From: Amphibalanus amphitrite
Taxonomy: Eukaryota
Direction: 5' to 3'
DNA: 64,000 bases
NCBI RefSeq assembly: GCF_019059575.1
Contig: NW_024881729.1
Coordinates: 480,406-544,405 of the forward strand
Positions 8,596-41,915 of the stretch are shown in pieces; the first letter of the stretch is position 1; each line of letters opens with the position of its first letter. Below the pieces are notes generated by a model. The model had not been told where the DNA came from. It searched no databases and saw only the letters and a list, made by a program, of their open reading frames with translations. The position numbers and the translations under genes are program-made.

Positions 8596-9793
8596 TAACC
8601 CGCGCCCTGATGGGGGGCCATTTTGGCCCCCCCTGTGGTTTTTCTTAAATAGCGAGAAAACGGCGGCGCGCAGCGCCGCCAAATTTTTGGTACCTTACCG
8701 GGCATCAATTTGACACCTTCACACAAAATTTCAAGTCACAGGTCACCTCAGGTCAGGAGTTATTGAGGTCAAACTGAGGTCATGTTCGAGCAAAAATGAG
8801 CAAAAAACATGACATCTTGAAACGCTCACCAATTCTACAGTTAGCAAGCAATTTTAAAGTTCTTTATGTGGTTGTGTAGAGAAAAGACGGCGCTACAAAA
8901 CTGCTATCTCGGATTTCCGAAATTTGTGGATTTTGACCCCCAAAAATAAAAAAAATGATTTTTTTAGAAAAACTCAAAAAAATTCCAAAAAAATTCGAAT
9001 TTCGAAAAAACCGGAATATATGTGATAGTCCCTGCGCTCTTCGATATACATACCAAATTTTAGATCGATACCTCTTTTTTTGGCCAAGTTATAGCGAAAA
9101 AACTGTTACAAATTGATGACGTCAAATTTTTGAACTCAATTTTTTTTGCAATTCTAGACCTCGTAGCGCAAAACGGAGACCACCATTGAACTCCCCGTGA
9201 CGAGCTGCATCGAATCGATACCCATTTTATGCAAAAATATCAACTTTGAAATTTGACCTAATTTGACCTGACCTTGACCTGACCTTGACCTGACCTTGAC
9301 CAAAACGTGACCTAAGCTGGCCCTAAAGTCTGTCTGACCCACATAATCGCATTTGTCATGCAAAATGGACCATAAAACATGTATCACACGACACTTTCAT
9401 ATTGTGACCCCCCCCCCCCCCCCCCCCCCCAGTGACCTGACCTCTGTGACCTGACCTGGTATCAGTGACCTCAAATAGCAAAATATGTGTTTGAAGAACA
9501 TTTCTCCATCGATGATTTTCAATGAAATGCATTTTACTCGATTTTACAACGCATTTCTTGAAATGCCTGTAAACGGTGAAAATTCGACCTTTGACCTGAC
9601 CTGTGACGTCATCGGTTTGACCGAGGTCAATGAAATTGGGTCACAAGGAAGTTCCCCGTTGGGGCTATCCAACACCGTTTACCGCTTGTCGCTATGTTGT
9701 GTGGTTCTCGAGATCTGAGGGGGGGGGGCCAAAATGCCCCCCCCCCCCATCAGACCGCGTTGCTCGGCAGACCCCATCTGGGCGCGGGTTAAA
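8596..9793 (+). mobile_element. A ~1.2 kb non-autonomous DNA transposon (MITE-like), copy 1. TTAA flanks and CCCGCGCCC...GGGGGGCC TIRs suggest piggyBac-like mobilisation.
   Basis: The left end is TTAA|CCCGCGCCCTGATGGGGGGCCATTTTGGCCCCCCC and the right end is GGGGGGGGCCAAAATGCCCCCCCCCATCAGACC...GGGCGCGGG|TTAA. The interior has a (TGACC)n-like tract and a C22 homopolymer. It is ~90% identical to the reverse complement of 27070-28250. Confidence 0.7.
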
Positions 9794-11387: not shown

Positions 11388-14311
11388 ATGGTGCGCCTTC
11401 TGCAGCCATCGCCGCTGGCCGTTCTTCCACTGTTGCTGTCGCTGCTGACGTTAAGCCCAGGTTACGAGGTGACGGTGTTCGGTCCAGCCACCCTGTCTGA
11501 TCTGCTGCTACACCACGGCTCCGGCTCAGCCGCCGCGCTGACGGTGGCCTCGGCCCTGTCCCCATCGCGGTACATGTCCGTGGACAGGTCAGCCGGTCCA
11601 GACTGGGTCATACAGTGGCAGGATGACGAGGAGATCTCAGAGGATGGCGGAGCTGGAGAGAGTACAGCGCGGGGACAGGACGACCTGGTCAGCGGCTACC
11701 GTCTCCCGGAGCGTGGGTGGCCCTGGCCGGCAGGGGATGACCTAAGGCAGGTCAACAGTTTAGGATACCCAAACACACCACCGAAAGACGGCTTGTCGGC
11801 TCACCGTGTGGATAACCTCACATCATACATCACCTCGTTGACTGCACGTGACGCAGCCATCGTTGATACCGGCACGAAACATGACACGAACGGGACCGGC
11901 TTTAAGGAGGCTGTTCGAGACACGCTCGCCACGATTTTCGAGGAGATGCTGCGCCGTCCGAACGTCACAGAGGTCAGCACCGAGGCCACAGAGGTCACCG
12001 AAGTCACCAGTGTGGCGGAGACGGGGCTGGAGGCCCCTTACGAGGCCGGCTCGGAACCATTCCTGGAGGATCAGCTGGCCACCGCCTCCACCATTTTAGG
12101 GCCGTCAGACGACGGATCCCCACTGGGTCCGTGCAGTACCTGTGCCGACAGCCTCCAGTGGACCCCAATGCTCGGCTCCAGTCCTGGTCCGGGTGGTTCG
12201 GCGAAAGGTGACTTGGGCACCAGCGACTCTCAGTGGCTGGTCATCACAAAGACGGCCGACACGCACCCCATCTACGGCGACCCTGATCTGACGGCCGAAT
12301 CCAGTCAGGACGCGCTGGAATCAGTGAATGGACTCGAGCTCGGCGACTACGACTCGGCGTTTAGCTCCGACTCCGGGTGGTCGGCCGGAGACAACGAGTA
12401 CAGGTACGAAGACCAGACCGCAGCCAGCTCCATACCGAGGGCCGGCATAGTATCCCGGATGTCCCGCATCTGGAACGGCATGAGGAGGAGGATCCGCAGA
12501 CTGTTCCCCTCCTGGGAGTACCTCACGACATGGAGGACGCCCTGGTGGTACGAGCGACACGTCAGGCGAAACAGGAACAGACCCCATCGACGTCGCAAGA
12601 GACCAAGACCGTCATATGGAGCACCCAGGCCAAGGCCTTCGTACGGAGCTCCGAAACCCAAGCGAAAGCCTCAACCTTCATATGGACCACCAAAGTCTAA
12701 GCGAAGGCCCAGACCTTCGTATGGGCCTCCCAAGCCCAAACGAAAGCCAAGGCCATCATACGGGCCACCAAAGGCAAAACCAAAACCATCGTATGGACCA
12801 CCAAAAGCAAAACCGAAACCATCGCATGGGTCACCGAAGTCGAAGCCAAACTCTTCGTATGGACCTCCAAAGTCTAAGCCAAATGCATCGTATGGGCCAC
12901 CCAAGTCTAAACCAAACGCATCGTATGGGCCACCTAAATCCAAACCAAATGCTTCGTACGGACCACCGAAGTCAAAACCCAAGACATCTTATGGACCACC
13001 AAAGAGTAAACCCAAAGCATCATACGGACCACCGAAGTCTACGTCGAGCGCGTCTAACGGTGCTCCGAATTCCAAGCCAAGCTCTTCATACAACACTCCA
13101 AGCAGACCCAGTCAAACATATGGAGCTCCCAGGAAACGACCAAGCCAGATGTACGGTCCTCCCTACAACTCTCAGTTGCCGACTCTACGCGGGTCGCCGA
13201 ACCGTCGCGATGGGACACGGCCCTCCGAGCCCATAGACGTCCAGCCGTTTCCGACTACCTACACACCGCAGGTCTCCGGCTTCGGCGCCGTGAGCGAGGC
13301 AGCTCTAGACGCACACACCCTCGACCCGGTCACAGAAGTGGACTACGGCACGGCACCGGCCGAAACTGATACGCTGGACGAGTTTGACCATCCTCGCCGA
13401 CCCAATAGACCTCACAGACCTCACAGACCTCACGGACCTCACGGGCCTCACAGGCCACACAGGCCGGCCGAGCACCGGTTCCCGTCGTTCGACTGGCTCA
13501 GCGCTCCGTTCCGCGCCGCGTACGACTGGCAGATGGGTCTGCTAGGAGGCTTCCTCCGGCGCATGTCGACATTCCCGTCACTCAACTGGGGAGTTCCCTC
13601 CATTCGATTCCCACTTCTGCCAAGTGTTCTGAGGCGCGATGAGCGCTGGGATAGGACCAGAGCTGATGAGAGAGGTCAGGTGCTGCAATACACGGACTGG
13701 GGTGAGCCGGACTCGACGATCCTCCAGGACCGAGCCGGTCTGCCCGCCGGTACCGGCAGGTCGTCGGTGGTGGACGGCCTTCTCTCGGCGCTCGTTGTTC
13801 TTCCGTTCGCGCTGTTCGCGGCGGAGCGTGCCGTGGCCCTTGGAGAGGTGCTTGGTAACACCACCGCAAACCTCTGGGTGGTGGACGCGCTGACCCAGGA
13901 GGGAGGAGGTCAGGTGGCGGGCGCAGGATCCAGACTGCTCCGCGAGCTAGAGATCCTGACGGAACGCTGTACAGACGGCCTGACTGATGACGCTGAAGGA
14001 GCCAGCAGACAGCAGCAAGAACATGCCACCAACATCACCACCAAATATCTTGACCAAAGCGAAGCAAACGCTTCTGAAGACGCTGACCACCTTGCTGAAG
14101 GAAGTGGTGAAGAGGTTGCTGACGAGATTAGCCACCAGACCTGTCCCTCCGGCTCCAGCACCGTGGGTCACCTGTTGGGCACCTACCGCTCGCTGTCCGG
14201 CTCCGTCGCCGCCCTGCCCGATGACCTGACCTGCCGCCCGCTGGCGCTGTGTCACGAGCTGAGGGCCAGGGTCGACAGCCCAGCCGATATCGCCGCCGCC
14301 ATCGCCGTACT
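11388..14311 (+). CDS. Gene A exon 1: a secreted repetitive protein. It has a signal peptide, ~18 copies of (K/R)PxxSYGPPK(S/A)K undecapeptide repeats, an HRPHRPHGPHGPHRPHRP tract, and a C-terminal C-x5-C motif.
   Basis: An uninterrupted 975-codon ORF starts MVRLLQPSPLAVLPLLLSLLTLSPG. It ends at a perfect GTGAGT donor (14312-14317) overlapping the in-frame TGA; the exon ends in phase 2. Confidence 0.6.
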
Positions 14312-14652
14312 GTGAGTACCCCCGGAGATTGTTAACTAACCGTATAATGGGGCACTTCAATTTAAAATTAGCGTTTCAAAGAATTATTGCTAAATGTTAT
14401 TATGTAACTTTATGTGATAGGGCATTCATATATGTACTGCAAGCATTTATAAATTTTAACAATGAGGTATTTAAGTTTTAATAATAAACAAATTTTGTGT
14501 CGTTATCAATGTTATCATTTTCGGTGTTAGCCTGCCCTATACAATACTGGGAACAAAAGATATTTGTTTGGAAAGCTTGTTTACATATGCTTTAGCGGTT
14601 TTCCATCGCTAAATTACGTAGACCCTGTTCAGCTTATTTTACCGTTTTACAG

Positions 14653-14794
14653 GGCGGTTCAGTCAGCCATGAGCGATGCACCCGTCTGGAACCTCCTGAG
14701 TCTGGGAGCTTCGCTATGGGACGCAACGGACGACAGCAGCGACCTCTCGTGCTGGTCTCGTGCCGCAGAAAGCTGCTCAGCTGACCCGACCTGA
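14653..14794 (+). CDS. Gene A terminal exon: (L)AVQSAMSDAPVWNLLSLGASLWDATDDSSDLSCWSRAAESCSADPT followed by the stop.
   Basis: The acceptor ttttacag|G is at 14651-14652, and the frame continues from exon 1 in phase 2. It carries the second Cys pair of the shared C-terminal module. Confidence 0.55.
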
Positions 14795-17070
14795 GGTCAG
14801 GTCAAGGTCAGGTGGCAGAGATCATCTAGTCGCGCGGGCCTGCACAAACTGGTCGTCAGCTGATTCAGTGTAAACGACACCATATAATCTATGTTTAGTG
14901 GCATTACAAATCCAACTGCGGGCCCGGGTCACGGGCTGGCTGTGGGCCGTCGACAGTCGCTGCAAAAACAGGGTCATTTAAATCGTCTGAGTTTCTCGTC
15001 TGGAGTTATTGTTGCACTCTGAGGCCAGACCGAGCTATTTACCGTGACTGTCTGTTTGCAAGGCATTTGTTCCGACTACTGTTTGCAGATTAGATTCATG
15101 GTCGTTGCACGTCTTGCTCTGCAGATGGAGAGACAAATGGAGACGAGACGGACTAGGTCAACAGGCTAGCTTCATATTTTTCGTGGAGTACATTCGGGTA
15201 GTGGCTCCAAATCCATGTAACGAGACGGCTCTGTGACAGTAGAGTTGGGATGGCGGGACATAGATTCACTACGCTCCTTTTTATGTTGTTAAATGTTTTT
15301 GCAATTATCAGATCGCTTAATTCCTAGGGTCTTTATAATTCGTTCAAGTATTTATGTTATCTGAGCGTGAATTTAACGCCACGATAAAAATAGCGCAGAG
15401 GGTAGTGCCGTGTCTCTTTAATAGTGTATTGAACAGTGTTTAACTTGTTGAATGTTTTACGCATTGGGACATATGATTCAATTAAGTGTATGTTAATTTA
15501 TTATGTTTCTCTTTCTTTCAATGGTTCGATCATGCGCTTATATGAAAGAACAGGCCTAGCATGTTCATATAATAAACGTCGTTTATTATTTGACGTCTTT
15601 ATTTATTGTGCATTACGGAGAGCCGACTCACATAACACGTTAAAAGTGCAGCAATAATTTTCATGGCTTTTGACAAAACTGGAGCGAGACGAAACGCATG
15701 CCATTCATACAAGGGCGTGCGTGATGCGAATATGATGGCTGAGACTGTTGAGAGGAAAATGGAACGATAGAAAAGACGTCATTAGCTCTGATGTTATTGA
15801 CTGCATTATTTTATTTGTCCAATGAATCCATATCACGAACTGCAATAAGGAATGATAGCACACTGCTGTGAGTGGAACACCATATAGCGAAGGAGGGCTC
15901 GAGTTTGTTGTGATGCTCATTTTGCCCCATTTTTCAGCCGTAATTTGGCGTAATTCCCCGAGCGAGGACGGTGCGTAGCGAACCAGTGTCATGCTGGCTA
16001 ATGTCCCATAATTAACGTAGCGTGTCGTCGCGGTGAGGTATTCTGAAGTCGTTGGCGTAAGCGCCTAACAGTGAGGACCGTTCTGCCGGGCCGGTATGTG
16101 CCATAAGACATTGCTGAAGCTATAGGCACGATGTGTAGGCGGCATATGCACCAAGTATGCACGACGCATAGACGGTGGGCTTGCAGTCGACTGTGGGACA
16201 TTTGCGAATGGCGCGGTATAGCGTACAAAACGGTAAACAACAGATCGCGCCATTCCCACGCATACATTTATTTATACACACATGCGTGTGTACACATATA
16301 GGTGGGTGGGCAATGACATATATGTCATTGCATTATAAAGACGGCACGACATTCGTAGCTAATATCGGCTACTGGTGTGCGCACAAATTGATAGATTATG
16401 CTGATGATCGAATTTTGATGAATGTTTGAAAGTGGACCAATTGAAAGCTTACCAATTAAAATGAAACATTTTGACCCGCAACAAGCCGTGAAACTACTAT
16501 GAGCGATGGGCGAGCGCCGAGCTGTGTTTTAAGTTCTTTGCACTGGAATTTCCAAACCAGCACGCATGGGAGACCTTCCTCACGTGAGTTTCCAACCGTC
16601 TGCCACTACATATAGCCTTCACGCAAGCATCAACCACTTGTGGTCGCTGCGCCCATCCGTTACCCGGTCACAGTTGAGGATCTTCACCGCCATCACCGCC
16701 ATCACATCACCGGGACTCCCGGTCGACTGGGTTCGCCGTGCGCCCATTCGCCGTTCCTGTTGTTGCCGCTGCCACCGCCGCCAATGCTCCGCCTCGTCAC
16801 CACCGTACCAGAACGGTTGTCAATTGTGCGCTCCTGAGTGAGACTTCACCTGCACTATACGGCCGGGACGGACGTGCGCCGCAGCCGTCCCGGACGCGCC
16901 GCACATGGCTCAATCGCGTCAGATTTGTGCATGCCGCCCAGCGGGTGTTTCTTGTGTGTGCTTCAATTGAAGAAGTGCGAGTTGGTCTTTCGTATGCGTT
17001 GAAGTGTAAGCGCGCATGGAAGTGCACATATCTTGCCAGTCGACTTGTTGACTTGTGACAGTGCTGCGAG

Positions 17071-17608
17071 CTATGGCAATCACCTCTAGGTCCTCCAAGT
17101 TTCCATCCCGGCGTCTGTGGAGGACAATGATGCTCGCTGCGCTGACCGTGCCCGGCCCTGCGGCGCCCTCGCTCGTGCCCCGGTCCCTAGCGCGGCCGGC
17201 TAACCGTCTGCTCGCGGCGACAGCCAGGTCGTCCATGGGCTACGGGGGCGGCGGCGGCATGCTGCTCCCCAGTTTCGGGATGCTGCTCACGGGGCTCAGT
17301 TTCCTAGCGTTCGGCACGTTCCTGTTACTGCTGGTACAGCAGGCGATCGGTGGCGGCGGCACGGGTACGGGCGGCGGCACCGGAGGCCGCAGAGACGGAG
17401 GTGCCGCAGAGGTCGGACTCTGGTCCGAGCTGACCTTCCTGCTGGGCAGCGTGGACGAGGTGCCCGAGCTGGCAGCCGAGGCGCTGCTGAGCACCTCCCG
17501 GCTGCTGGTGCTGGAGAGGTCAGGCTGCGTGGCCCGCCGGCTCTGTCAGCTCAACAGCCGAGCGCAGCAGCAGGAGGTCTACAAAGGACTCATCTATAAC
17601 CTCGTCAG
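17071..17608 (+). CDS. Gene B exon 1: a Gly-rich protein with a hydrophobic helix, ending ...RSGCVARRLCQLNSRAQQQEVYKGLIYNLV(R/S). The start codon is uncertain: 17071 or 17125.
   Basis: The ORF ends at the donor CAG|GTGAGA (17609). The C-x5-C motif aligns to gene A (TCRPLALCHELRARVDSP) and gene C (QCGRRLLCELNQKARSQ). Confidence 0.45.
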
Positions 17609-17854
17609 GTGAGAGACGGTAAACGGAACCGATACAAAAAGACCGATGTTTGTGTCGAGAGGGGGGGGGGGAGGGGCGAAGGGCATTGGTTGCATAGTGG
17701 GTAATTGTATGCTTAGGTAATTAATGCATTTTGAAGTAGGAAATGGATTAATAATAAATCAAGGTATTCAAAATGTCGGAAATATATGTAGGTGCTTTTA
17801 AAAGGCGCCCTTGATATATGGTAGGCACATATACCTACGAGCGGTCAGTTAATG

Positions 17855-18020
17855 CTCCAGGAACTAACGTCTCTTTCCTGGTAGACTGTTCCGCACTACA
17901 CGCGTGATTGCGGCGCAGCATGATCCCTATATCGCGCGGACGCCGAACAATCTAAAAAACAAATAGCTGTTTAGAGCGAAAAGTCCAATAATTTATGCAA
18001 TTGATCGCTTGGCTGTTTCT
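17855..18020. repeat. Arm 1 of a ~170 bp, ~97% identical inverted repeat; arm 2 is at 20775-20945.
   Basis: gttccgcactacacgcgtgattgcggcgcagcatgatccctatatcgcgcggacgccgaacaatctaaaaaacaaatagctgtttagagcgaaaagtccaataa is the reverse complement of 20801-20930. Confidence 0.8.
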
Positions 18021-18273
18021 GGGAATACCAAATGACTCGTATGCATGTAAATAGCGTTTATTCAAGATATCGGACATGGCGCTGACTATTACGTAGCCGT
18101 TCGATACTCGGTCTCGAATAGGTACACCAAATAATTAAAGTATTTTCTCACGAGATAATTTTGGATGAAGATAAGAATATTTCAATTGGCTGACAAAAAA
18201 ATGTAATCTCTCGCTGATGGCATTGTTTAATGTTTGACCCCGTTCCCGTACTGACCAGAGACCCCTTTCACAG

Positions 18274-18397
18274 TGTCGGGACGTCCCTGATCCCCACGGC
18301 GGAGGTCTCTCTGTGGGAGAAGCTGGCCGCCGTCCTGGAGGCCAGGACGGGAGGACGCTGTGAGGCGACGTTCTCCTGCGTTGATAAACCGGGATGA
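18274..18397 (+). CDS. Gene B terminal exon: (S)VGTSLIPTAEVSLWEKLAAVLEARTGGRCEATFSCVDKPG followed by the stop.
   Basis: The acceptor is ctttcacag|T and it continues phase 2 from 17608. It is homologous to the terminal exons of genes A and C (second Cys pair RCEATFSC versus DCVATFDRC versus SCWSRAAESC). Confidence 0.45.
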
Positions 18398-18539
18398 GCC
18401 AGCGCGGTGTGCTGGCTTTTCGCTGCTGAGCTTTAGATAGGATATTAGTCGGAGGAAAGAGTACAACTTTAATTTATTACTCATGCCAAATGCATGGTGA
18501 GCGAGCATCGATCGTGCGTTAATTTGCAAATTTATCAGA

Positions 18540-19385
18540 CATTTATTACGAGCGAGCGAGCGCAGCGAGCGAAGTGAGTCTTTTCAATATAACGGAAAAA
18601 TCTCAGTATGAGCGGCCCGGCCCGGCCCGGCCCGGCCTGTAACGCTTTTGAGAGGCTTATATCTCAGCAACCGCTGGACCGATTGGCCTGCGGTCTTTTT
18701 TGTTGGGTAGCCCCATCCCTTCTACCCCGTAATTGACTACTTTTGATACATCTCAGTGACCGTCGTGGCACGTGCCACGTGAAAAGTCAAGGGTGTTCAA
18801 GCTGTTTTGCAAAATTAGTGATTTTGAGAGGCTCATATCTCAGCAGCCGCTTGGGCGATTGACTTGCGGTAATTTTTGTAGGGTAGCAGCATCCCTTCTA
18901 CCCAAAATAGGATAGTCTCGATGCATGTGGGTCACCCCCAGTGCACGTGCAAAATACAACAATAAGAGGTGCCAAATTTGTTCCCATTTCAGTAACTCGG
19001 TAATTACTGGGGCGATTTCGCTGAAACTTGGCATACAGGTAGGCACCCACCAGGCAATGCATTCCCATGTGTTGCGATTAGGGTGGTACTGCACGTGCGC
19101 ACGTGCAGGGGGCGTTTCCAGATCTCGAGAACGGCTGGGCCGATTGCGCTCAAATTTGGTACACGGTTGGGGACCAGTTAGTAGGGTGCCGTGCAAAAGT
19201 CATTTTGGACCCCGTTTGCACGTGCGCACGTGCAGAATGCCGCTTCCAGATCTCAGGAACGGCTGGGCCGATTGCGTTCAAATTTGGCACACCGCTAGCG
19301 ACCAGTTAGAAGGGTGCTTTGCGCAAGCCCGTTGGAAGCACCCTCTCGCCCTTCCGCACGTGCAGGGCTCACTATCTCGCTCGCT
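18540..19385. repeat. Satellite-like tandem array with units of ~130-180 bp and 4-5 diverged copies. It is bounded by inverted CGAGCGAGCG / CGCTCGCTCG termini.
   Basis: Recurring blocks include cacgtgcgcacgtgcag...ccagatctc(g/a)g(a/g)aacggctgggccgattgcg(c/t)tcaaatttgg(t/c)aca and gagaggct(t/c)atatctcagca(a/g)ccgct. Confidence 0.7.
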
Positions 19386-20774
19386 CGTTCTTCGCCCAAA
19401 AGGCGTTTTACTGGTTATATTGTTATTATTCCATAGCTATGTTCGTGTATTTTTGCGTGTGGGTGTTTCGTTCCGTGATGTTTAGAGATGCTGCATGCAA
19501 GTTGGTTGACCATTGGTCTGTGCTCGTTTGTCGTTTTGCTGCGGTGCATGCGGGTATATAGTGAAATGACCAAATGTTTTGCGTATGAATGGGGCGACAT
19601 TCATCGATTAATAGTCAACACCGTTTCTTACAGTGAGATTAAATTTGATCTGAAAAAAAAAATTGTTATTTTAAAACTTTTCTCTTTCAGAATTAAATGC
19701 AAGTAGGCATGCCCACGTATAAGATCCCACCTAAAAATAGATTGCCTGTATTTAGAGGCTCGCCCTCGTCCTCGGGACACGGCTGAGCCGCGGTCACCCA
19801 CTGATCGGTAACGTTTCTTTGTGATGTCGCTCTTGGCTTTATCATCCAGGCACGAAGCCAGTATTTTGCTTAGGGAGGGGCCACAGGTCGCGGCCTAGTG
19901 TCGTACCCCTCCAAAAAAGGAAAGCTTCTCGGATTCGGCCCACTATTTTTGGATGTGTGGTGCAGCTGTTTTTATTTATTATCTTTTATTTAATTTTGTA
20001 TCATTTTTTGCCTACAAGGGGAGGGAGCCATGGCCCCCGTGCCCCCCTTGCTACGTCCCTGTTATCATCGTTCGGCTCTGAAATGGTTTTGTTTGTTTTC
20101 TTTTTGTTTTGTTGGGTTAGGCCCTTTCGGTCCAATGGGACCATTTCAGAGCCGGGAGGATGATAGGATAAAGGGGGAGACATTGGTCTGGGCAGGCACC
20201 CTAGTGAGTCGCCGGGGCTGAGCCCGTCCAGAGGACAGGCCACCCAGCCCCAAGGCACTCACTGCACCCGGCTACGGGGTGCGCTCCCTCGGGAGCAGCG
20301 GTGCCGCTCCAAGGGAGCAGCCCGCATGAGATAAAGTTGCCTGTCCAGCCCGGAGAGGGGTTGCGGCGTGGAGGAGAAGGATTTCAGTATCCTGAGGATA
20401 AAAGCACGGAACGGTGACTGAAATGGTCACTTCTTTAGGCAATATACGTAAGTGATCCTAAAGCATGGGTCTCCTGTCTCCATGTCACGGCTGTCTGAGA
20501 AAGGGTGGCAACCAATGCCACCTACCAGACTACCACCTCCAATGGTGGCTGGTGAATACAACCAAGGCAAACGCGTCCAGCTCTGAACTGAGTAGGTATC
20601 TATAGCGCCATCTGCTGCACAAAGGTTGGAGAACGTCCAGGTCCAACGGCCAGCGCCCTCTGCTCTGAGAACGAAGAATGGTGCTTCAGACACTATGCAT
20701 AGGTGCATACTCATATATGGCCCGGACCACACAGGTGACGCTCAGCAGTACCCAACAGCCGAGAGTCACATGGT

Positions 20775-20945
20775 ATGCCCAGAAACAGCCAAGCGATCAA
20801 TTGCATAAGTTATTGGACTTTTCGCTCTAAACAGCTATTTGTTTTGTAGATTGTTCGGCATCCGTGCGATATAGGGATCATGCTGCGCCGCAATCACGCG
20901 TGTAGTGCGGAACAGTCTACCAGGAAAGAGACGTCAGTTCCTGTG
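20775..20945. repeat. Arm 2 of the inverted repeat. The two arms enclose ~2.75 kb, including gene B's terminal exon and the 18540-19385 tandem-repeat element. They are possibly the TIRs of a ~3.1 kb element.
   Basis: It is the reverse complement of 17855-18020. Confidence 0.8.
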
Positions 20946-21229
20946 CATTGACTGGCCGCTTCTAAGCGATGCCATCCTCAATCTTCATGCTAAGAACCAG
21001 CAAATCGCTCTTGGCAGTCGGCTGACAATCGTCCCAGCGGGACACCCGACAGAGAACAATTTCAATGGGACTCTTTTCCTCCGAAGTGACCGATTGAGAG
21101 AGGGTGGGTGGCTCTTCTCACCGTGCGCGGCACTCCTGACTTTCGTGTGCGACTAACTAGACGATTTGGAAGCACAAAATATATAGGAAATATTACACGT
21201 AATCCTTGGTAGAAGTTTGAAACGTCTGG

Positions 21230-21790
21230 GTGGACGTTAAGATTATTTGATCAATATTCCGATTTCCGAAAGCTAGTTATTTAAACGTTAGTTACCATGA
21301 CAGATGAGTAGCTAGTTTCAAAAAAGCATTTTTCTGTCTAATGAAGACAAAACCGTTTTGCGTTACCACTTACCACTCGACGGACTTCTAAATACGATTA
21401 GAAATTGTGAGACGTCTTTTAGCCGTTTAAACGTTTTACTAGACATTAAAACGTCTAAAGGTCGTTTAAACGTTGATTTGAGTTGCCCTTTAAAGGTCTT
21501 CTAGCCGTTTAAATATATTTAGGCCGTGAAAATGATTAAAAGCGGTTTAAATGCTAACTAGCCGCCTATCTATCATTGTCAGTACTCACAAAAATTAATA
21601 CGTCTCTTTAACATCAAATGGTCGTTTTAACGTCTAATTGAAAACTTAAGTTATAAGCCGTTCAAACATTTTTTAGACGTTTAATGCACCTGATAGTATT
21701 AGCCGTACCTATAATCGTAGATATTGTAGCCGCTTAAACGTTAAAAGCCGTATTACGCCCCTTACCCCTTCACACATTTAATACTTATCT
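21230..21790. repeat. A degenerate minisatellite built on (T)AGCCGTTTAAACGTT-like units of ~25-40 bp.
   Basis: There are over 12 recurrences of gtttaaacg or cgtttaa with agccg or ggccg prefixes. Confidence 0.6.
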
Positions 21791-23896
21791 AAACATCCTT
21801 TGAAAAAGTTGTTAAAACGGTTAGGATTGTTTGCATATCAGGCCTTGCAACGTTTTCTGGATCGTAAAAAAATTCAGTGATGTAGCATCTCAATTTTTTT
21901 GCTCTTCATATACATATAGGTATAGCTTAAAAGGTACGTACTCGTAGAGCGTTTGCAAATATCTTAATACTGAACCTACGTTGCGAAATAATCATTATCG
22001 GGTATCGTGCATAATTCACTTGACGGTTTGAAATGATACGATACACAAGATGCCTACACAATAGGTACACATGACAGTTTCATGCTTGGGTTCCTCTGAT
22101 CAGCCACTCGTTGCCTTTGTGACCTCTTTTCCAGTCAGCCCGATAATATGTTGATTGTTGGGTCAATCCCCGTCTGTCTCCATACGATATGCATGACAGA
22201 CGAACTGGGTCTGTCTGAGCGCGTCCCATTCGTCATTGAAATGCACTGGAACAGTGAAACGGTGCACACTCACCACCACGGGAGAACAGCGTAACCACGA
22301 CCGACAGCACAGCCAGAATTTAGAACAGATGGCATCCGCCAGAGATGCACTACCTACTAATGCCATGAATGCACATCTGAACATTTCCACAGCAGATGGT
22401 CGACGGAACACGACATCCGATCATTTCTGATGCACGCGGTTCCGTGTTACATCCAGCTAGCACGGTTATGTTTATGCACGACCCAACCATCACGTCATAC
22501 GGTCTCTGTGCCAGTTGCCACGACCGGTGGCACTTCCGTCACTGCTCATATATTTCGGCTTCTTCTCACCGTACCTTGATTTCGGTACCCCGGCCGCGCC
22601 CTGCGCTCCTCTATCGTGTCCCGTGGCGCCCACGATATGCCGCTCCTGACACCCGTCCCGTTACCTTTCCGCTCGGGACCGGCGGCCGTCATGCTCCGCC
22701 GTCCGCCGTGAAGACGGGACTGCTGCGCATCGGCGGCGTATGTGGCGCACTGGCGGCGCTACCGTGACCGAGCCGCAGTCGACACCGCGCCGAAGGGAGT
22801 GGTTTATGGCTAGTTAGGCGTAATTAATTAGGGATCATGTGCGGAGGCGGTGAGCTTCTGAGATCAAACGGTACGTGGTCGTCTGGGCCGGTGGAAGCTC
22901 CGACGCTGCATTCAATCCGTATAGGCAGTCAGGACACTTCGAATAATAGTATTTCCTCGAGGTTAGGGTATGCCATTTACAACAGCCGATGGCTTATATG
23001 TAGCTGCCATATAGCATGTATCAATTGGTATCGAGTACCCGTTTATAAGTGGGGTCCATGGGGAAAGGGCTCGTTACCTAACGCAGTGTGCGCTGTGCAG
23101 CGTGTACCGTACAACGCTTGGTTCAAAAATGCAGCTATTAATGTGCGAAAAGGCATACGAACTTTTGTCACCTCATTATGCATTCTGCAGTCCCTTCTCG
23201 CGAATCCAGCACAGCGGTAACCCACACCGTGACGTCGTGACGGCCGTGACGCGGGCCATGACCCATCCGTGACGCTCCGGGAGCCGGGGGCGGGGGCACG
23301 GAGCGTCACGGCGCTCGGCGGCTGCTCCGGTCTGCTCCGGATGGTGCTTGGCTCAGAGTGCTGGTAGAGGCAGCGCTGAATGGCGCCGAATCGTCGGAGA
23401 GCTCGGTCGCCGAGTGTGGTTGGTGGCAGCTGAGCGAACTGACGGAGATAGCGTGAAGCGGTTGACAACGGGCTGGGGAGAGAGTTGAATAGTGACTGTG
23501 CTCAGTGGCGACCGATTCAGCGAATCTAGAAGACATATCACCGAGCATTGACCTCTCGACCGGTAGATCAGTGCACGAGAATTCGGCTTACCTGAGCCGA
23601 TCGAGGACGGTTTAAGCTGCAGCCGGTTTCTGGGTTTGTTTGTGTGTTTCGGTGCGCGGGAGAGTCAGTGATCTGTTGTGGAAGGTGGTCCATAATTCGT
23701 CACCTGTGTCTGTGCTGTAGGTAGACGGGGACCGGTTGGCGGTCGGACATTGATCACTGGATGACTGGGTCGCGGTCGGATGCGGTCGGACGGCGGTCAG
23801 ACCCGATTAGGTAGATCACCGTGCGGTCGTGCCTGCCGCTGCACTGGTCGGTAGAGCGGCGCTCGGCGTCACACCGCGTCAGTGCCAGTGAACATC

Positions 23897-24768
23897 ATGT
23901 CGATGTCGGAGCTGACTCGTGTGCTGCTGATGGCAGCAGTGCTGGGAGGACTGCTGGCTGAGGCCGGGACGGTCAGTGCTCAAAGTGGTGACGTTCAACG
24001 GCTGGTGCGGCTCAGAAGAGCTCCACTCCGAATCAGCAGAATCAGCAAATTCCGACCGGAGGACCCAACTTCTACCAGATCTAGCCCGGTAACAACATCT
24101 AGCCCTTCTAAGCCTGGTTCGAGCAGCCTGCATTCTCCCGGAGAGGTTCAGGTTGTGACCAGTCTCCTTCGCTCCCACACGGCCTGGCCAGTCTGGAGGC
24201 CGCCTGTCTCTGTCACCACCGGCCAACCGCCGAGCACTGTTGAGCCAGGCGTGGAGGGTCAGGTAGAGAGGACCACAATGGTTTCAGAGGTCACCGTACC
24301 CACGGAGGCGAGCGCCGGGGTAAATTACCAAACGAAGCACCCGGAGCACTGCCTTCAGACGGAGCACTGGTCAGAGCACTCGGAGCACTCGGAGCTTCAC
24401 GTTCAGACGGAGCACCCGGAGCATCAGACAGAGCGACCAGAAACTCCGATAGACCGCCGACCAGGAGTCGACCTGGAGCTCCAGTCGGAGTCCGATCCTC
24501 CAAATGAACACTCAGAGCTCCAGGAGTGGCCGGAACACCACCCAGAGCCCCATCTTCAGACGGAGCCCCCGGAGATCCATCCTCAGACAGAGCCATGGCC
24601 AGAGCCCGGTCCAAATCCCGCCGGCAGCGGGGGAGGCCGTGAGACGGCCCCTGGACAGCTCCCCACTGAACCACCCAGCTCCGAGCTGACGGAGCGACTG
24701 GAGGACATCAGCGCTCGCATCCAGCTGGTCCGACAGAAGCTGTCACAGAGGCTGGACTCGCAAATGAG
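23897..24768 (+). CDS. Gene C exon 1: a secreted His/Glu/Pro-rich protein. It has the signal peptide MSMSELTRVLLMAAVLGGLLAEAGTVSAQ and HPEH/TEHxE repeats.
   Basis: The ORF ends at the donor AG|GTAGGT at 24769, a phase-2 end. Confidence 0.55.
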
Positions 24769-25002
24769 GTAGGTAGGCTGAACCTGAGCTCGCCTGCTTA
24801 AGACTGTCCGTAGAACATGCTTAGTTAAGTCATGACGTCTTGTAGCGGGTGATTTGTCTAAAAAAATAGCTTTCACTATAACTCCTGCCAGCAGAATAGT
24901 CGCTTTTTACAAGGGCCTTGCCCAATATAGCTCGATGAACTTCACAAGACGATGATCGGCGATCGGCGCTCCTTCGCTGACAGACTGAAACCTGACCCAC
25001 AG

Positions 25003-25320
25003 AATAACTGGCGCCGGTAACTCGCTGGTCACGCTAGCGGTGCTCGCGCTGGGAGTCCTCCTTTTCGACGCCATCAACGACGCTCTGGCGGGCGGCGGGG
25101 GCGGCCGGTCCGCCGGCGGTCTCTGGGGCCGTCTGCTGGGTCCCGAGCTGCTGCGATGGGCGACACCGCCGGACCGCTGGGACAGACTCCTGGCGGAGTT
25201 GGAAGATGAGGAAGCGTCGGCAGGCCGGGAGGTGCTGCTCCCCGGGCCGGGAATCATCGGCGAGTACATCAACAGTCTGCTGGAGATCGGCCTCAACATG
25301 ATCACAGTGTGGATGCATGG
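25003..25320 (+). CDS. Gene C exon 2: (R)ITGAGNSLVTLAVLALGVLLFDAINDALAGGGGGRSAGG...EYINSLLEIGLNMITVWMH(G).
   Basis: The acceptor is acccacag|A, and the exon is open in the required phase-2 frame. The donor is GTGAGT at 25321. Confidence 0.45.
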
Positions 25321-25579
25321 GTGAGTGGGATGGGTGAGGGCAGCGAGAGACGAGGGGCTTACCGAGAGGAGCACGGTTTCGGTAGTTGCATCTTGTGCCG
25401 GGGCGGGGAAGGGGAGGGTCAAGGGAGCCCATAGAGAGGTGATTTAATTTTAACCATAGCATGCCAGCAATTATCTTGAAACAGCTCGATTTGTGTATAT
25501 TTCTAGCAGCGAGAAGCGGTACCGTATTTGTCCACCTAGCGGTCATTCGATGAACCACTAGTTACCGTTCTGTCCGCAG

Positions 25580-25799
25580 GGAGGCGGGCTCGCAGTGCGG
25601 TCGCCGTCTGCTGTGTGAGCTGAATCAGAAGGCCCGCTCGCAGTCAGCACTGCACTCAGCGCTGACGTATACGGGCGGCCTGCTGCTGTCACTGCTGCTG
25701 CCTGAGGCGTCTCCCTCCGACCATCTGCTGGCCATGAGGCAGGGACGGCGCGGAGCCGACTGTGTGGCCACCTTCGACCGGTGTCAGGTCACACTGTGA
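25580..25799 (+). CDS. Gene C terminal exon: (G)EAGSQCGRRLLCELNQKARSQSALHSALTYTGGLLLSLLLPEASPSDHLLAMRQGRRGADCVATFDRCQVTL followed by the stop.
   Basis: The acceptor is tgtccgcag|G. It contains the complete four-Cys C-terminal module shared with genes A and B. Confidence 0.55.
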
Positions 25800-27069: not shown

Positions 27070-28250
27070 TTAACCCGCGCCCCGTAGGGCTACCGGCGGA
27101 CCCTACCACCCGTAGGGGGGGGGGGGGGGCCGTTTCGGCCCCCCCCTAAGATCTCGGAAAGTTACCGGCCGATTTTCAAAATTCAAACGGCGTTTGATAG
27201 CCCTACCCGGGAACTACCTTGTGACCAAATTTCATTGACCTAGGTCAAACCGATGACGTCACAGGTCAGGTCAAAGGTCAGATTTTCACCGTTCACAGGC
27301 AATTCAAGAAATGTGCTGTGAAATCGAGTAAATTGGTAATTTGTTGAAAACCATCGATGGTATATTGTTCGTCAAACACATACTTTGCTATCTGAGGTCA
27401 CTGATACCAGGTCAGGTCACAGCGAGGTCAGGTCACCGGGGGTCACAATATGAATGTGTCGTGTGATACATGTTTTATGGTCCATTTTACATGATAAATG
27501 CGATTATGTGGGTTAGGCAGCCTTTGGGGCCAGCCTAGGTCACGTTTTGGTGAAGGTCAGGTCAAGGTCAGGTCAAATTAGGTCAAATTTCAAAGTTGAT
27601 ATTTTTGCATAAAATGGGTATCCATTCGATGCAGCTCGTCACGGGGAGTCTAATGGTGGTCTTTGTTTTGCTCTACGATTTCTAGAATTGCCAAAAATTG
27701 AGTTTGAAAATTTGACGTCATCATTTTTGAACAGTTTTTTCGCTATAACTTGGCCAAAAAACGAGGTATCGATCTGAAATTTGGTATGTAGATAGAAGAC
27801 GGTAGGTACTATCACATATATTCCGGTTTTTCCGAAACTCAAAAAACTTTTTGGATTTTTTGGCTAATATATCCAAAAAAATGCTTTTTTGATTTTTGGG
27901 GATCAAAACTCAAAAATTTCAAAAATCCGAGATAGCAGTTTTGTAGCCCTGTCAATTCTACACCTTTTATGTCTTGATCATTTTTCTGTATCTTCAAAGC
28001 TGTAGGCCTGACAGGTCTTCTCGCGAAGGTCTTTTTTCGGTCGAAAATGACAGAACATGACGTCACTCTGACGTCATTTGTGGCCAACCTACCACAGCCT
28101 CTGGAAAAATTTTTGGTCACAATGTGTAAAATTGATGCCCGGAGGGGTCCTGAAAGTTTAGTGGCGATATCTCCAGCCGTTTAGGAGATATCGACCGAAA
28201 AGGACAGGGGGGCCGTTTCGGCCCCCCCCCCCTACGGGGCGCGGGTTAAA
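27070..28250 (-). mobile_element. MITE-like element, copy 2, in inverted orientation relative to copy 1. It lies immediately 3' of MVP.
   Basis: The ends are TTAA|CCCGCGCCCCGTAGGG...GGGGGGGGGGGGCCGTTTCGGCCCCCCCC and GGGGGGCCGTTTCGGCCCCCCCCCCTACGGGGCGCGGG|TTAA. The internal sequence is the reverse complement of copy 1, for example ggtatcgatctgaaatttggtatgtag. Confidence 0.7.
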
Positions 28251-28705: not shown

Positions 28706-31145
28706 CTAGCGCGGCCGCTGGACGGCCGACTCGGTCCCGGCCGCCTGGCCCAGTCCCACCAGGCCCTGGGCGGTGTTCAGCAGGCTGATGGGAGTGCGTC
28801 CGTCGGTGATGAGCGTGGACTGCAGGCCCAGACTCTGCAGCATGCGCACCTGGTGGTCGCCGCCAGCAGTGGCCATGGCCTTCAACGTCTCGGCGCCCAT
28901 CGCCGACACCATCTGCTGGAACTTCTCGATCTCGATGTTGGCCATCTCCTTGGAACGCGCGATCTCCAGCTGGTTGCTCTCCTCGGTGTACTTGAGCTCG
29001 GCCTCGCGCGCCGAGCGCAGCCGCTCCAGCTCCGACTCGGCCTCGATGTTGGCGGCGCGCGCCTTCAGGCCGGCCTGCTCCACGGCCGCCTCTCCCTCGA
29101 TGCGGGCCGCCTCGGCGCGGCTCTGCGCCTCGGCCTTGGCCTGACCGGTGCTCTCGATGGCCGCGCACGCCGTCTGCAGCTCGACGAGCTCCTTACGCGC
29201 CTGCTCCGCGGCCGCCTCGTCCTTAATCTTCTGCCGCTCGAGTCGGCCACGCGCCTCCTGTTCCGTGCGCTCGGCCTCGTGCTTGGCGGCCGCCTCCTGA
29301 GCGTTGGTGGTGATCTCGATGGCCAGCTGGACGCTCTTCTGGAGCGAGTCGCGCGTCCGCTGGTCCACCGGCTCCACACTCTGGATGTCGATCGAGGTGA
29401 CCACAAGGTTGTTCTGCGGAAACACAAACTGTTTGCGCACCTTGCCAGCGTCGTCCAGACCGAACACAGACTGCCGGATGATTTTGGCCGAGTTCTTGTG
29501 GAAGTCATCGAATGGTCGCTGCGCCACGGCGCCGCGCACACGAGACGCGATCGCCTTGCACGCGTCGCCCACAAAGTCAGGCACGCTGAAGATCTTGCAC
29601 GCATCCTCGGCAGTCTTGTTGCCGACATCAAAGTGCCAGTTGTAGGCAATCTGCAGCGAGAGACGCGCGTGGTCGGACGTCTCGACAGTGACAATATCAG
29701 TGCAGAAGTCGGGTCCGAGCAGCAGCGACAGCGCCCGGATCGTGTTGGGCTTCTTGGGCTTGCCACCGGACAGGGAGAGTTGCGTGAACTGTTCGTCCGG
29801 CTCCAGCATCACCAGGTCGGGGCCGAACACAACGCGCGACCGCTTCGCCTTGTAGTCGTAGACCTGAACGGCTGCGTTGTGCGGCACGCGGTAGGTGATG
29901 ACGCGGGTGCGGTCGCTCAACTCGTCATGGCTCTTGTTGGTCGCTGACCGTCTCAGCTCCCGGTAGCCGCCGCGGTCGGCCAGCGCGTCGGTACGCAGCA
30001 GCTCCACCACGCTGGCGGGCAGCTCCTTCTCCCACAGCTCCTCGTCCTGGGTGAGCATGTAGGTCTGTCCACAGACGGCGCGCACCTCGCCCGTGCGGTT
30101 GTTGCGCACGTAGATACCCTCGGTGCGGTCGAGCGGGATAGCCGTCTGCTGGACGACCACCTCCACCTCGATGGGCGGCACGAACTCCACGGGCCCGGTG
30201 ACCATCCAGCGGTCTCCGGGCCGGCGCGTCACCGGCGGCGTCACTGTGTTGTCAGTGAACGCCTCGCCGGCGCGCAGCACCAGCGCCTCGTTCTCCTGGA
30301 GGATGTAGTTGTCGCGGACGTCGTCTTCCAGCGTCTCACCGGGCTGCAGGAAGAACGACTTCTCACCGCGCACCAGCCGACGCTGGCCGAGCTGCGGCTT
30401 GCCGTCCGGCCCGACCGGGTCGCAGATGACGCAGTACTGCCGGCTGGTGAGGGTGGTCACCTCGCGTTCCTCCACCACCTCCTCGTACACGTCTGGGATG
30501 AACGTTTCCATATCGTCGAAGCGCACCAGCCACTCCTCGCCGTTCTTCCTGCGCACGCCGCGACTGTCGGTGAAGGTGCGAGTGGCGCGCACCAGAAGAG
30601 CCGTCTTCTCCGTCAGCACGTGAGCGTTCACCATCTTGGCCACCTCCTCGTAGACGCCGGGCATGTAGGCGCCGACTCTGGTCACCAGCCATTCCTCGCC
30701 GGCCACCCGCTTCTGGCCCTTCCAGTCGGTGGTTTCGAGTCGTGCCCGCAGTCGGAGCGCCTGGTTCGGCCCGATGATGATGGCCTTGATATCGGCCACC
30801 TCCTCGACCTCCGGACGCGGCACGTAGGTGCCCGGCCCGAACAGCCACTCATCGCCGGCGGAGCGCACCACCTCCCCCTCCTTGAACTCGCGCAGCGCGC
30901 GCAGGTGGAGCGCCTTGTTGGGCGGGACCACCTTCAGCGGCAGCACGGCCGAGCTGAGCTTCTCGCCCGGGTACAGCGGGAATGGGTCCTGGTGCAGCCG
31001 CACCTCCGTGTCGGCGTGCAGCAGGCGCGCCTGGCCGCTGGCGTCGCACACCACCTGACCGTCCTCGCCGCGCACCACCGGGTTCTCGACGACACAGTAG
31101 TGGCGCGGCGGCACCACCACCATGGCGTTCGGGCCGACGATGACC
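28706..31145 (-). CDS. MVP: Major vault protein (MVP), main 3' coding exon: R + [22 protein letters not shown] ... to the stop. The acceptor ctccag|GG lies at 31145/31146.
   Basis: The 805-aa ORF aligns end to end with vault MVP repeats and the shoulder/cap-helix region ([56 protein letters not shown]). Together with the upstream exon the phase-2 junction reconstitutes ...DNER|VIVGP, as in human MVP. Confidence 0.9.
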
Positions 31146-31830
31146 CTGGAGACGGAGCGGGACAGGGTCAGGACAGACGGCCAATAATAAGTCTCGAAAC
31201 ATTAGCGGGTTTGAGGAGCACATCATCACATTTTGGTTGAAACCGAGACGGGAAACTATACGATAGAATTAGACAAGCACAGCTCTTCTACGGTCACCGT
31301 TATTGACAGTGACCGCAAAACGAGGGAGTTGAAGCCCGAGCTCCTCGGCCCGCTGCGCCACCTATCCTGCCCTGACCTACACCATGAGAGCTTGGCAGCT
31401 CCCAGCCGCACTAGTACCCGATCTCCCATACAGATGGCGCCCGGCCGCAGCGTCCGATCCCCAGTCGGACGGGTGAACTCGGGCCTGGACACGCCGCCGA
31501 AATGTCGGGCGCTCTCCGTATCGATCCAGGGTGTGGCGGAGAGCGGCCACATGGCGCGTCCCATCCCCGGTCCCGGCTCCAGCGCGGCGCGACCCCCCGG
31601 CTCTCCGACGAGCCGGCAATATGGCCGACCCGCCCACACAGCGGACACAAAGACTGGGAAATACACTCTTCAACTAGCCGACGTTCATGAGCAACTTTTG
31701 CATCATTGTCGCTACGGAACATACTGCTCGTAGAATACTCATGAGAATATCTACCCCACCCTTCAATCCCTCCAATTCCCGACTGTCTCTGTCTGAGATG
31801 CCGCTCGAACGCCCACTTACCGTTCATTGT

Positions 31831-37505: not shown

Positions 37506-37618
<113 letters not shown>

Positions 37619-40275: not shown

Positions 40276-41413
40276 GAAATAAGGTTCTATGACGTCCCGT
40301 TCCAAAACAAAAATAACGACATTTAAAGGTAGTGTGCCAGCTTTCTTGGACCGTATGGAGATAATGGCCCAGATAAGGAGAACCGGATTTTTAGAACTTA
40401 TCCATACCTTCAAAACTCATGGAAACGTCTTAAATTCTTCAAATTTTGAGTACCCCAGTGCGAAATTCGCCCCGACGGGTTGTCGGTCGTACCCCAACCA
40501 CATTTCACACCACTATGAACAAGAAATGCACACACTGAAATCGCTATTACCGATATGCTCATCCAATCAAGTTTCGATAAACCCGTTCATCATCATCTCC
40601 TGCGGTTTCGAACACGCCTGTTAGGTGGCTTCTGATGCTCGTCGAGGTCGGAATTTCCAAATACGCGTGGTGCGTCGGGCCGCGCGCTCTGACTTCGGCC
40701 AAGAAAAATGCGTCAGCTGATCATTGTCATTTCTGCCACTTGCGTGTTGTGAAATGGGGTCATAACTTATAAGACGGCTTTTTCATATCAATTATTTTAC
40801 ATAAAATCATATTTCAAACCATAAATAATGTTTGACAGCCAAATAAAAGAAACAATACCAATACGGGCTTACAGTTTAAGGCTCGACATTGTGTTGTCTA
40901 CGATTAGACAGCTGATAACTCATTCCCGTACGTCGTATGGTCGTAACACTATAATGACCTTTGCTTATTGTCACAAGTGCGCCGCATTCGCGATTGTTGC
41001 CCGACGCCTGTTTGCAGGTGAGCCCACTACAGTTGTTATACATATCTAAAAACCGAAAAACTTTTAGGCGAAAAAGGCACTATTCCAGGCCCATTTTTGA
41101 TTTTTTTTTTGCGATATTAGGTAAAAACAGAAGCTTCTTATCCTAGGAAAAATAAAATGGGAAATCTTTCAAAGGTGGCACACTACCTTTAATCGAACTT
41201 GGTCGGCACCGCTAAATGCGTCCTATATATGGAAGAAACGCGCCCATGAACAAGAAATATCGTACCAACGATAAAGACATCAAAAAATCGGCACCACTGC
41301 CGCGGACCCCGATAAAAATCCTATCAGCATCATCGCGATCGCCCTCCCTCAGCTCTCCCATCCACGAATCAAACATTCCACCCCTTCAACCACCAATCAT
41401 ACCCTATGCTCAC

Positions 41414-41661
41414 CTTATGCGCGGGATCGACGAGAATCACCTCGAAGTACTTATAGGTGGCGTCCTGGCCAACCCAGTAAGAGTTGAGCACACGCAGCGC
41501 GTTGCACTTCTTGCCGACGCGACCCTCGGCCACCGACTGGTGGTTCATGTTGAGCTTCAGCTCATTCACTCCCTGGCGCACCGGCTTGCCGTAGGTGGCG
41601 CCCTTGTGCACCGGGCGTTTGCGGCCTCCGCGGCGCAGGCGAACGCGGTAGATGGCGTATC
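41414..41661 (-). CDS. RPL15: Ribosomal protein L15 exon 2: (G)[35 protein letters not shown]...[24 protein letters not shown].
   Basis: It matches human RPL15 residues ~58-140. The acceptor is ttcccag|GA and the donor is AAG|gtgagc. Confidence 0.92.
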
Positions 41662-41788
41662 CTGGGAACGGAAAAACGACCGTCAAACTTGGCACTTCAT
41701 CTTTCATTTTGAAGATGAATAAATATGGACAACAGACTAGGCAAATTAACAATTGATGGCTACATGAAGGCAGTAGGGTGCAAAATAC

Positions 41789-41915
41789 AAATGTGGTCCA
41801 AGCTCCACCCCGGCCCAATATGCAACATGAGCCAGGTTGGTAAGCCGTCAGTTGCTGTACTTTCTCTCCTTAAGACAACACTATGAATAAAATGCGGTCC
41901 TTACACAGAGAAAGA
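41789..41915 (-). ncRNA. Second copy of the conserved intronic element, in RPL15 intron 1; candidate H/ACA-like small RNA or short repeat.
   Basis: See the 40153-40275 feature. Both copies lie in introns of a ribosomal protein gene, which is the classic snoRNA host arrangement. Confidence 0.35.

Follow-up and report, generated by a model that had tools for sequence, protein, structure and literature searches.

Three consecutive plus-strand genes, here called A, B and C, occupy positions 11388–25799 of the 64,000-nt stretch of DNA from the acorn barnacle Amphibalanus amphitrite that we analysed (hereafter the window). The protein predicted from each is closed by the same kind of tail, in which two cysteine pairs follow the pattern C-x5-C, 48–52 residues, C-x5-7-C. 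Profile comparisons indicate that B and C are true paralogues within DM4/DM12 (PF07841), an arthropod domain family that had been catalogued before, and support a picture in which the low-complexity bodies of these two, unrelated and evolving fast, each carry a conserved, Cys-stapled module at the C-terminus. For the locus as a whole, we moderately favour a reading as three genes of the secretory pathway, with B and C in DM4/DM12, A a diverged relative of B, and a matrix or cuticle role for the products.

An earlier note on this DNA had interpreted the cluster as a lineage-specific family of three paralogues. Neither lineage specificity nor novelty is supported, as the module is that of DM4/DM12 and orthologues of gene C occur across Pancrustacea. 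The paralogy is upheld for B and C; for A it is unproven, all sequence tests having returned negative results.

Genes B and C as members of the DM4/DM12 family

Gene C returned a match to PF07841 (23.9 bits, E 7e-5, profile positions 15–86 of 86) that passes the gathering score of 22, as do its orthologues P0012 and P0014 (23.2 and 25.1 bits, respectively). Gene B matched the corresponding part of the profile (positions 18–83) with 12.7–15.0 bits, below the 22-bit gathering score. A profile made from both modules, B and C, gave only 15 matches among 1.84 billion representative proteins, including full-length uncharacterised proteins of Meganyctiphanes, Cherax, Portunus, Allacma and Orchesella; relatives of C are thus found in krill, crayfish, a swimming crab and two springtails. 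A family hidden Markov model (HMM) made from the non-barnacle relatives only (krill, decapod and springtail) scored C at 122 bits over residues 354–469 and B at 21–24 bits over residues 154–219, running unbroken across the splice junction of gene B. The B score of 23.7 bits was matched by none of 1000 shuffles of B in which the cysteines were held fixed, and hhalign returned a probability of 82% for B against the family. Together with the 33% identity between B and C, these results argue that the two genes are true DM4/DM12 paralogues, B being a divergent one. All three tails had been described as alignable; this is borne out for B versus C, but the tail of A resembles neither B nor C nor the rest of the family in sequence.

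The relatives share a fixed order of elements. A hydrophobic helix (FLAFGxxLFD) is followed by an LPGxGxxG(D/E) motif and a long helix, and then by C-x5-C-E-x-N-Q, a second hydrophobic helix (TYxSxxxxS), AMRxGRxG and a C-x6-C pair, after which only three residues precede the terminal Leu. Judging from its sequence, gene C is the barnacle orthologue of a protein that is conserved throughout Pancrustacea.

Like B and C, the DM4/DM12 family (PF07841, IPR006631) is characterised by a C-terminal module of ~85–115 aa with four Cys in two pairs and is confined to arthropods. The barnacle members differ in carrying long low-complexity bodies, and A has only the Cys geometry in common with the family; in the pancrustacean subfamily to which gene C belongs, the upstream hydrophobic helix and the LPGxGxxG(D/E) motif come in addition. 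DM4/DM12 is represented by 30 genes in Drosophila and is among the larger insect domain families of unknown function (PMC8664486). A search of all six frames of the window with an improved family HMM recovered B and C only.

Gene models and their conservation

Translation of the exon coordinates proposed previously gave three open frames without interruption, and the introns are bounded by GT..AG with good polypyrimidine tracts. The junctions 14311/14653, 17608/18274, 24768/25003 and 25320/25580 were retained, but not the starts of B and C. Both proposed starts (17055 and 23882) are GTG codons, and since the host is eukaryotic we moved them to the first in-frame ATG (17073 and 23897, respectively), with 17127 as a second candidate for B. 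Across the three models, GC content is 0.61–0.68 by exon, with third-position GC (GC3) reaching 0.81, and 0.32–0.53 by intron. The three gene models find support in their splice sites and base composition, and cross-species sequence backs most of the exon junctions. As predictions, A, B and C hold up as three separate, real spliced genes for repeat-rich proteins with predicted secretion. Much of the cross-species comparison relies on L003, a 35-kb European Nucleotide Archive (ENA) contig from a second barnacle species that is syntenic with the A. amphitrite locus.

A hydrophobic helix had previously been credited to B. It is present there, but B is not alone in this, as all three proteins carry a strong one N-terminal to the tail (A, residues 794–812; B, 76–94; C, 297–315) with Kyte–Doolittle 19-residue window means of 2.06–2.30.

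Gene C consists of three exons. Exon 1 (23897–24768), read from its first ATG, encodes a textbook signal-peptide-like N-terminus by hydropathy, with the end ...GTVSA/Q, and a low-complexity body rich in His, Glu and Pro. Exon 2 (25003–25320) encodes the hydrophobic helix (25019–25075), an LPGPG motif and, from ~25190, the first helix of the module. Exon 3 (25580–25799) encodes the DM4/DM12 core, with the first Cys pair CGRRLLC at 25596–25616, the C-x6-C pair at 25761–25784 and the stop at 25797–25799. The second intron lies upstream of the first Cys pair, as had been noted, six codons before Cys1. In open reading frame (ORF) fragments of other barnacles (P0002–P0007, 76–88% identity), conservation is lost precisely at the edges of exon 2, as at its ...WMHG donor, and module fragments from other crustaceans start just ahead of Cys1; these breaks at the exon edges support both introns of C.

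Conservation within C is uneven. The last exon is 99% identical to the A. amphitrite hypothetical protein FJT64_002295, and the module reaches 99% identity when two A. amphitrite assemblies are compared and 89% against L003. Exon 1, by comparison, is only 31–53% identical to L003, and in assembly GCA_009805615.1 its ORF is intact with a protein identity of only 88%. The proposal that a fast-evolving scaffold bears a tail under constraint is therefore supported for C, but not for A, whose tail is conserved no better than the remainder of the protein. Over 22327–25385, in the C region, the window is only 94% identical to the GCA_009805615.1 sequence (L001), compared with 99.95% in the B region, and a 1.27-kb indel separates the two A. 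amphitrite assemblies near 22328. These differences, together with a frameshift in the GenBank copy of C exon 2, could reflect allelic hypervariability or an assembly error.

Gene B has two exons. Exon 1 (17073–17608, from the first ATG; GC3 0.81) encodes the hydrophobic helix (17280–17336, from the Kyte–Doolittle scan) and the first Cys pair, CVARRLC (17526–17546); the terminal exon (18274–18397, GC3 0.78) carries the second, a C-x5-C pair at 18359–18379. They are separated by a phase-2 intron (17609–18273, GC 0.42). An orthologue on a TARA metagenome contig (P0008/L002) comprises an ORF that is 57% identical and ends at the same AG/GTGA donor. According to the hydropathy scan, B has an N-proximal anchor only, and the protein may be type-II anchored. 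The intron of B also holds one copy (17840–18038) of a 199-bp inverted repeat, the other copy of which lies at 20763–20960; the two are 94% identical, and the repeat is likely a small mobile element.

Gene A, the longest of the three, encodes a protein of 1021 aa. Its exon 1 (11388–14311, 974 codons plus 2 nt, GC 0.61) is an ORF extending up to a GTGAGT donor. It is followed by a phase-2 GT..AG intron (14312–14652), with a GC of 0.32 against 0.61 and 0.63 in the adjoining exons, so that the short terminal exon (14653–14794) stands out as an island of GC 0.63. The encoded protein proceeds from a signal-like N-terminus through an acidic region, basic repeats, an HRP/HGP array, a hydrophobic helix and an acidic linker to the Cys tail. 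The predicted signal peptide, MVRLLQPSPLAVLPLLLSLLTLSPG (11388–11462), is a hydrophobic N-terminus with a Kyte–Doolittle 19-residue mean of 1.76. The acidic region spans ~375 aa (isoelectric point (pI) 4.6), in contrast to the repeat block with its pI of 11.3. The latter is formed by ~15 tandem units of 11–13 aa rich in Lys, Pro, Ser and Tyr, K-x-K-P-x-x-S-Y-G-P-P (12627–13039; Tandem Repeats Finder (TRF) periods of 33, 39, 66 and 99 nt). The His-Arg/Gly-Pro triplet array follows at 13399–13462 (TRF period 9 nt, 6.2 copies) and is kept in the L003 orthologue. The 33/39-nt periods and the 9-nt array confirm that the tandem repeats reported earlier are genuine. The hydrophobic helix VVDGLLSALVVLPFALFAA (residues 794–812, 13767–13823) has a Kyte–Doolittle 19-residue mean of 2.23, and the first Cys pair, C-RPLAL-C, lies at residues 949–955 (14232–14252). 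The HRP repeats, the helix and this first pair are all encoded in exon 1; the second pair, C-x7-C (14750–14776), and the stop (14792–14794) are in the terminal exon.

In L003, the orthologous ORF (1–2418) ends at the same donor, CT/GTGAGT, as exon 1 of A, and the terminal exon aligns with L003 2786–2926 at 57% amino-acid and 71.6% nucleotide identity. The acceptor, the intron phase, the four tail Cys with their spacing and the ADPT-stop end are conserved, and the first Cys pair reads CRRVKLC in L003; the intron itself cannot be aligned, whereas both exons beside it can. Two further Cys upstream (residues 861 and 919), which lie outside the DM4/DM12 pattern, are conserved as well. Within the hydrophobic helix, GLLSALVVLPFA is identical in the L003 orthologue and is followed by a conserved N-(T/S)-T sequon. 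The repeat number doubles between the barnacles, from ~15 units here to at least 30 in the L003 orthologue.

Gene A is a barnacle protein so far seen in barnacles only. Two metagenome scans returned no orthologues of A. For the C-terminal 324 aa of A and for B, word-indexed protein searches gave at most one match, low-complexity words having swamped the 8000 candidates considered; these negatives are unreliable because GenBank protein P0009, which has stretches identical to both queries, was missed.

The origin of the tail of gene A

One alternative is that the Cys pattern arose by chance in GC-rich sequence and that the terminal exons are spurious. C-x5-C by itself is indeed frequent, occurring ~170 times in the six-frame translation of the window. 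However, the full four-Cys pattern occurred only once in the same six-frame null, in a match that is unrelated, and shuffles of the last 330 aa of A reproduced it in 86 of 200,000 cases, or in 6 of 200,000 when it had to lie at the C-terminus. The Pfam match of C, the sharp GC steps at the exon edges and the conservation across species of all tested exons also speak against coincidence, and we give this explanation practically no weight. The pattern closes each of the three proteins, with spacings of C-x5-C, 52 residues, C-x7-C in A; C-x5-C, 49 residues, C-x5-C in B; and C-x5-C, 48 residues, C-x6-C in C.

We judge it somewhat more likely than not that the tail of A is a very diverged DM4/DM12 module, related to that of B, rather than an independent invention. 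Besides the Cys geometry, which exceeds chance expectation in the shuffles above, two features point to kinship. First, the intron of A is in phase 2, as is that of B. The two introns had been placed at the same position within the module; they split codon 20 (A) and codon 21 (B) after Cys2 and are therefore one codon apart, a near-coincidence that applies only if the alignment is anchored on the Cys and free of gaps. Second, A has the layout of B and C, with a hydrophobic helix followed by the tail. A single-sequence AlphaFold2 (AF2) model of the A tail places its helices in an order parallel to that of C, at a predicted local distance difference test score (pLDDT) of 45, which is too low for a comparison of folds.

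Several results weigh against this kinship. MAFFT leaves the cysteines of A unaligned to those of B and C, and hhalign probabilities for the A tail are 0.1–1.3%, including those for a two-species profile and for the entire region from helix to tail. Pfam returned no match at E<=10 for A or its L003 orthologue. The family HMM scored A at −1.7 bits and the orthologue at −0.5 bits, and shuffles with fixed Cys did equally well or better in 463 of 1000 cases for A and 179 of 1000 for the orthologue. Finally, the best local match between A and B, VWNLLSLGASLW versus IYNLVSVGTSLI, has a shifted register, in which the introns of A and B would not coincide.

These observations could instead mean that A is unrelated to DM4/DM12 and that its six-Cys C-terminal region is an independent barnacle domain, which would make the cluster two paralogues and a neighbour. 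The shuffle-level HMM scores of A and its orthologue, hhalign values below 1.5% and the negative Pfam search fit this view, as do the extra conserved Cys at residues 861 and 919, which are foreign to DM4/DM12, and the C-x7-C spacing of the second pair, where the family has C-x6-C. Set against it are the rarity of the C-terminal geometry among the shuffles, the phase-2 intron within one codon of that of B and the shared helix-then-tail layout. Moreover, A adjoins two true family members, and the adjacency of A and C is kept in another species. We regard an independent origin as a serious possibility, albeit a less probable one than descent of the A tail from a DM4/DM12 module.

Synteny and deposited annotation

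On L003, the order is the A orthologue (annotated with PF16058), the A terminal exon, the three exons of C and, on the opposite strand, a major vault protein gene. Gene B is not present between the A and C orthologues on this contig. At 4916–5782 of L003, where A. amphitrite has B, there is an intronless 288-aa PhyH-like (phytanoyl-CoA dioxygenase) ORF on the minus strand that has no counterpart in the window.

The window is 94–99.9% identical to GenBank contig VIIS01000581.1, the annotation of which differs from our models. FJT64_002293 (KAF0307362.1, the 739-aa protein P0009 mentioned above) fuses A and B by joining donor 14311 to acceptor 17228, and it also removes the A repeats as introns. 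GenBank splits C into two fragments because the copy of exon 2 is frameshifted in that assembly.

If the deposited model were correct, A and B would be one gene, with exon 1 of A joined to a position inside B and 14653–14794 left unused. That the annotation uses this very join favours such a fusion, as does the shared strand of A and B, with 2.3 kb between them. However, acceptor 17228 lacks a polypyrimidine tract, the same model treats the A repeats as introns, and in the B orthologue the ORF is already conserved ahead of the acceptor in question. The A terminal exon, with its stop, Cys, acceptor and phase, is also kept in L003, where B is absent between A and C. A single A–B gene is thus very unlikely; synteny argues for three separate genes, with both the fusion and the split of C as annotation errors.

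Module structure and topology

We modelled exons 2–3 of C in AF2 with a 19-sequence alignment (mean pLDDT 77.8, module >90). In the model, the module is all-helical, with a long helix (83–105, model numbering), a helix starting at Cys1 (112–125), a hydrophobic helix (129–145) and an amphipathic helix (151–162); a short turn joins Cys3 to Cys4. The module is thus predicted to be a small all-helical bundle in which the C-terminal C-x6-C is placed for tying back to the helix begun at C-x5-C.

We propose that the four Cys would form two disulfides on the luminal or extracellular side, stapling the C-terminus to the first module helix. The bundle and the preceding hydrophobic helix could then act as a compact hydrophobic 'foot' on the apical membrane or on a lipid or matrix partner. 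The low-complexity N-terminal bodies (Tyr/Lys/Pro-rich, His-rich or acidic) would reach into the cuticle or apical extracellular matrix and might there be open to cross-linking or to the binding of metal and mineral. The luminal or external placement of the module is suggested by several family members: upstream of their modules, P0019 and P0020 have no segment over the hydrophobicity threshold, and B and P0014 have an N-proximal anchor only. The N-terminus of P0020 is signal-peptide-like in sequence, and the helix of the crayfish orthologue is broken by Lys and Asp.

Two points count against this arrangement. By hydropathy scan, A and C have both a hydrophobic N-terminus and an internal helix, so that they pair a predicted signal peptide with a helix hydrophobic enough for membrane spanning; taken at face value, this would leave the Cys module in the cytosol, an unlikely setting for disulfides. 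In addition, no function has been established experimentally for DM4/DM12.

The proteins might instead be type-I membrane proteins with a cleaved signal peptide, the repeats outside, the internal helix as the transmembrane segment and a cytosolic tail, the four Cys of which bind metal (e.g. zinc) or are lipidated. Zinc is commonly bound through two Cys pairs. The signal-like N-termini of A and C and their internal helices, with Kyte–Doolittle 19-residue means >2.0, are consistent with this, and Osiris proteins have been described with a transmembrane segment (PMC3284338). P0019 and P0020 are difficult to reconcile with such a topology, having no upstream hydrophobic segment, and in B and P0014 the single N-proximal anchor would leave the module outside. 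The interruption of the crayfish helix by Lys and Asp and the sequon conserved right after the helix of A also disagree with it. We consider a cytosolic tail unlikely and prefer the disulfide-stapled module on the luminal or extracellular side.

Comparison with known systems

Among the closest described parallels are insect Osiris 17 and Osiris 24 (DUF1676 plus DM4_12), with a signal peptide, a hydrophobic segment and DM4_12 near the C-terminus, a layout like that predicted for the barnacle proteins. DM4_12 is recorded in Osiris 17/24, and both wing expansion and gut morphogenesis reportedly require Osiris 17 (PMC12825958). In bee larvae, DM4/12 genes shift in concert with Osiris genes and with those for cuticle and chitin binding (PMC9764631). 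By analogy, a structural, adhesive or matrix role is a reasonable proposal for the barnacle proteins.

We rejected membership of A, B and C in the Osiris family itself, as they have neither DUF1676 nor AQXLAY. At E<=1, DUF1676 (PF07898) matched none of A, B and C; P0012, P0014 and P0019 likewise gave no match at E<=10, and a regular-expression search for the AQXLAY motif found none in A, B or C. Shah et al. reported weak Osi17/Osi24 similarity in springtail and crustacean expressed sequence tags (ESTs) (PMC3284338). Orthologues of gene C were found in those taxa, and the similarity seen in the ESTs is probably to a DM4/DM12 domain of the kind present in gene C.

The repeats of A match Pfam PF16058 'Mucin-like' (60.5 bits, above the gathering score of 28.7) in two stretches within residues 516–592, the match being confined to about residues 400–600. 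The K-P-x-x-S-Y-G-P-P repeats thus resemble those of PF16058 proteins, as which the L003 orthologue is likewise annotated, but this is a low-complexity match that says little on function, and B and C have none. A literature search on the GenBank accessions, PF16058, the SYGPPK motif and barnacle mucin-like cement proteins returned nothing useful.

Mussel foot protein-1 contains decapeptide repeats, AKPSYPPTYK. As a lead only, A resembles it as a protein of a sessile marine animal, secreted by prediction, with tandem 10–11-aa basic repeats rich in Lys, Pro, Ser and Tyr; no homology is expected between a mollusc and a crustacean protein. 3,4-Dihydroxyphenylalanine (DOPA) chemistry is not known from barnacle cement.

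Taken at its broadest, the hydrophobic helix and DM4/DM12 bundle could be an ancient pancrustacean anchor to the apical membrane or matrix that predates the 'insect-specific' Osiris family. Such an anchor would have been taken into Osiris 17/24 and, in barnacles, re-used, its sequence diverged beyond recognition, to tether A, a new protein that is His-rich and has Lys/Pro/Tyr repeats. In the matrix, A would then play a structural or adhesive part, open to cross-linking, by convergence with mussel foot protein-1. We offer this scenario as speculation and think it improbable.

More narrowly, the analysis identifies a DM4/DM12 subfamily that reaches barnacles, decapods, krill and springtails with a fixed architecture of a hydrophobic helix, an LPGxG motif and a four-helix module with Cys pairs at either end, and so provides a clearer template for the domain and for the link to Osiris 17/24. 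It also corrects two GenBank gene models. Gene A, as a conserved, strongly basic Tyr/Lys/Pro-repeat protein with predicted secretion, merits attention as a candidate constituent of cuticle, shell-matrix or cement proteomes. Current understanding is not overturned; B and C are newly recognised barnacle members of a known family.

Other features of the window

The three-gene cluster is flanked by an inverted pair of ~870 bp (8880–9748 and 27119–27959, 83% identity), which probably represents a non-autonomous transposable element present twice. Directly downstream of C, the major vault protein gene extends from 28709 to 31201 and beyond on the minus strand, with a Vault repeat and an MVP shoulder domain; it is syntenic in L003. 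A ribosomal protein L15e exon (PF00827, E 7e-37) lies at 41372–41869 on the minus strand. Also on the minus strand, an unbroken 1054-aa ORF at 44563–47724 encodes ~30 N-terminal repeats of the type AAEQGTSAGER / AAEQGVTPSGGQGTS and a C-terminal DUF7869 match (29.7 bits), and is probably a transposon-derived gene. Finally, a (GA)n microsatellite of ~106 bp occupies 37511–37616.

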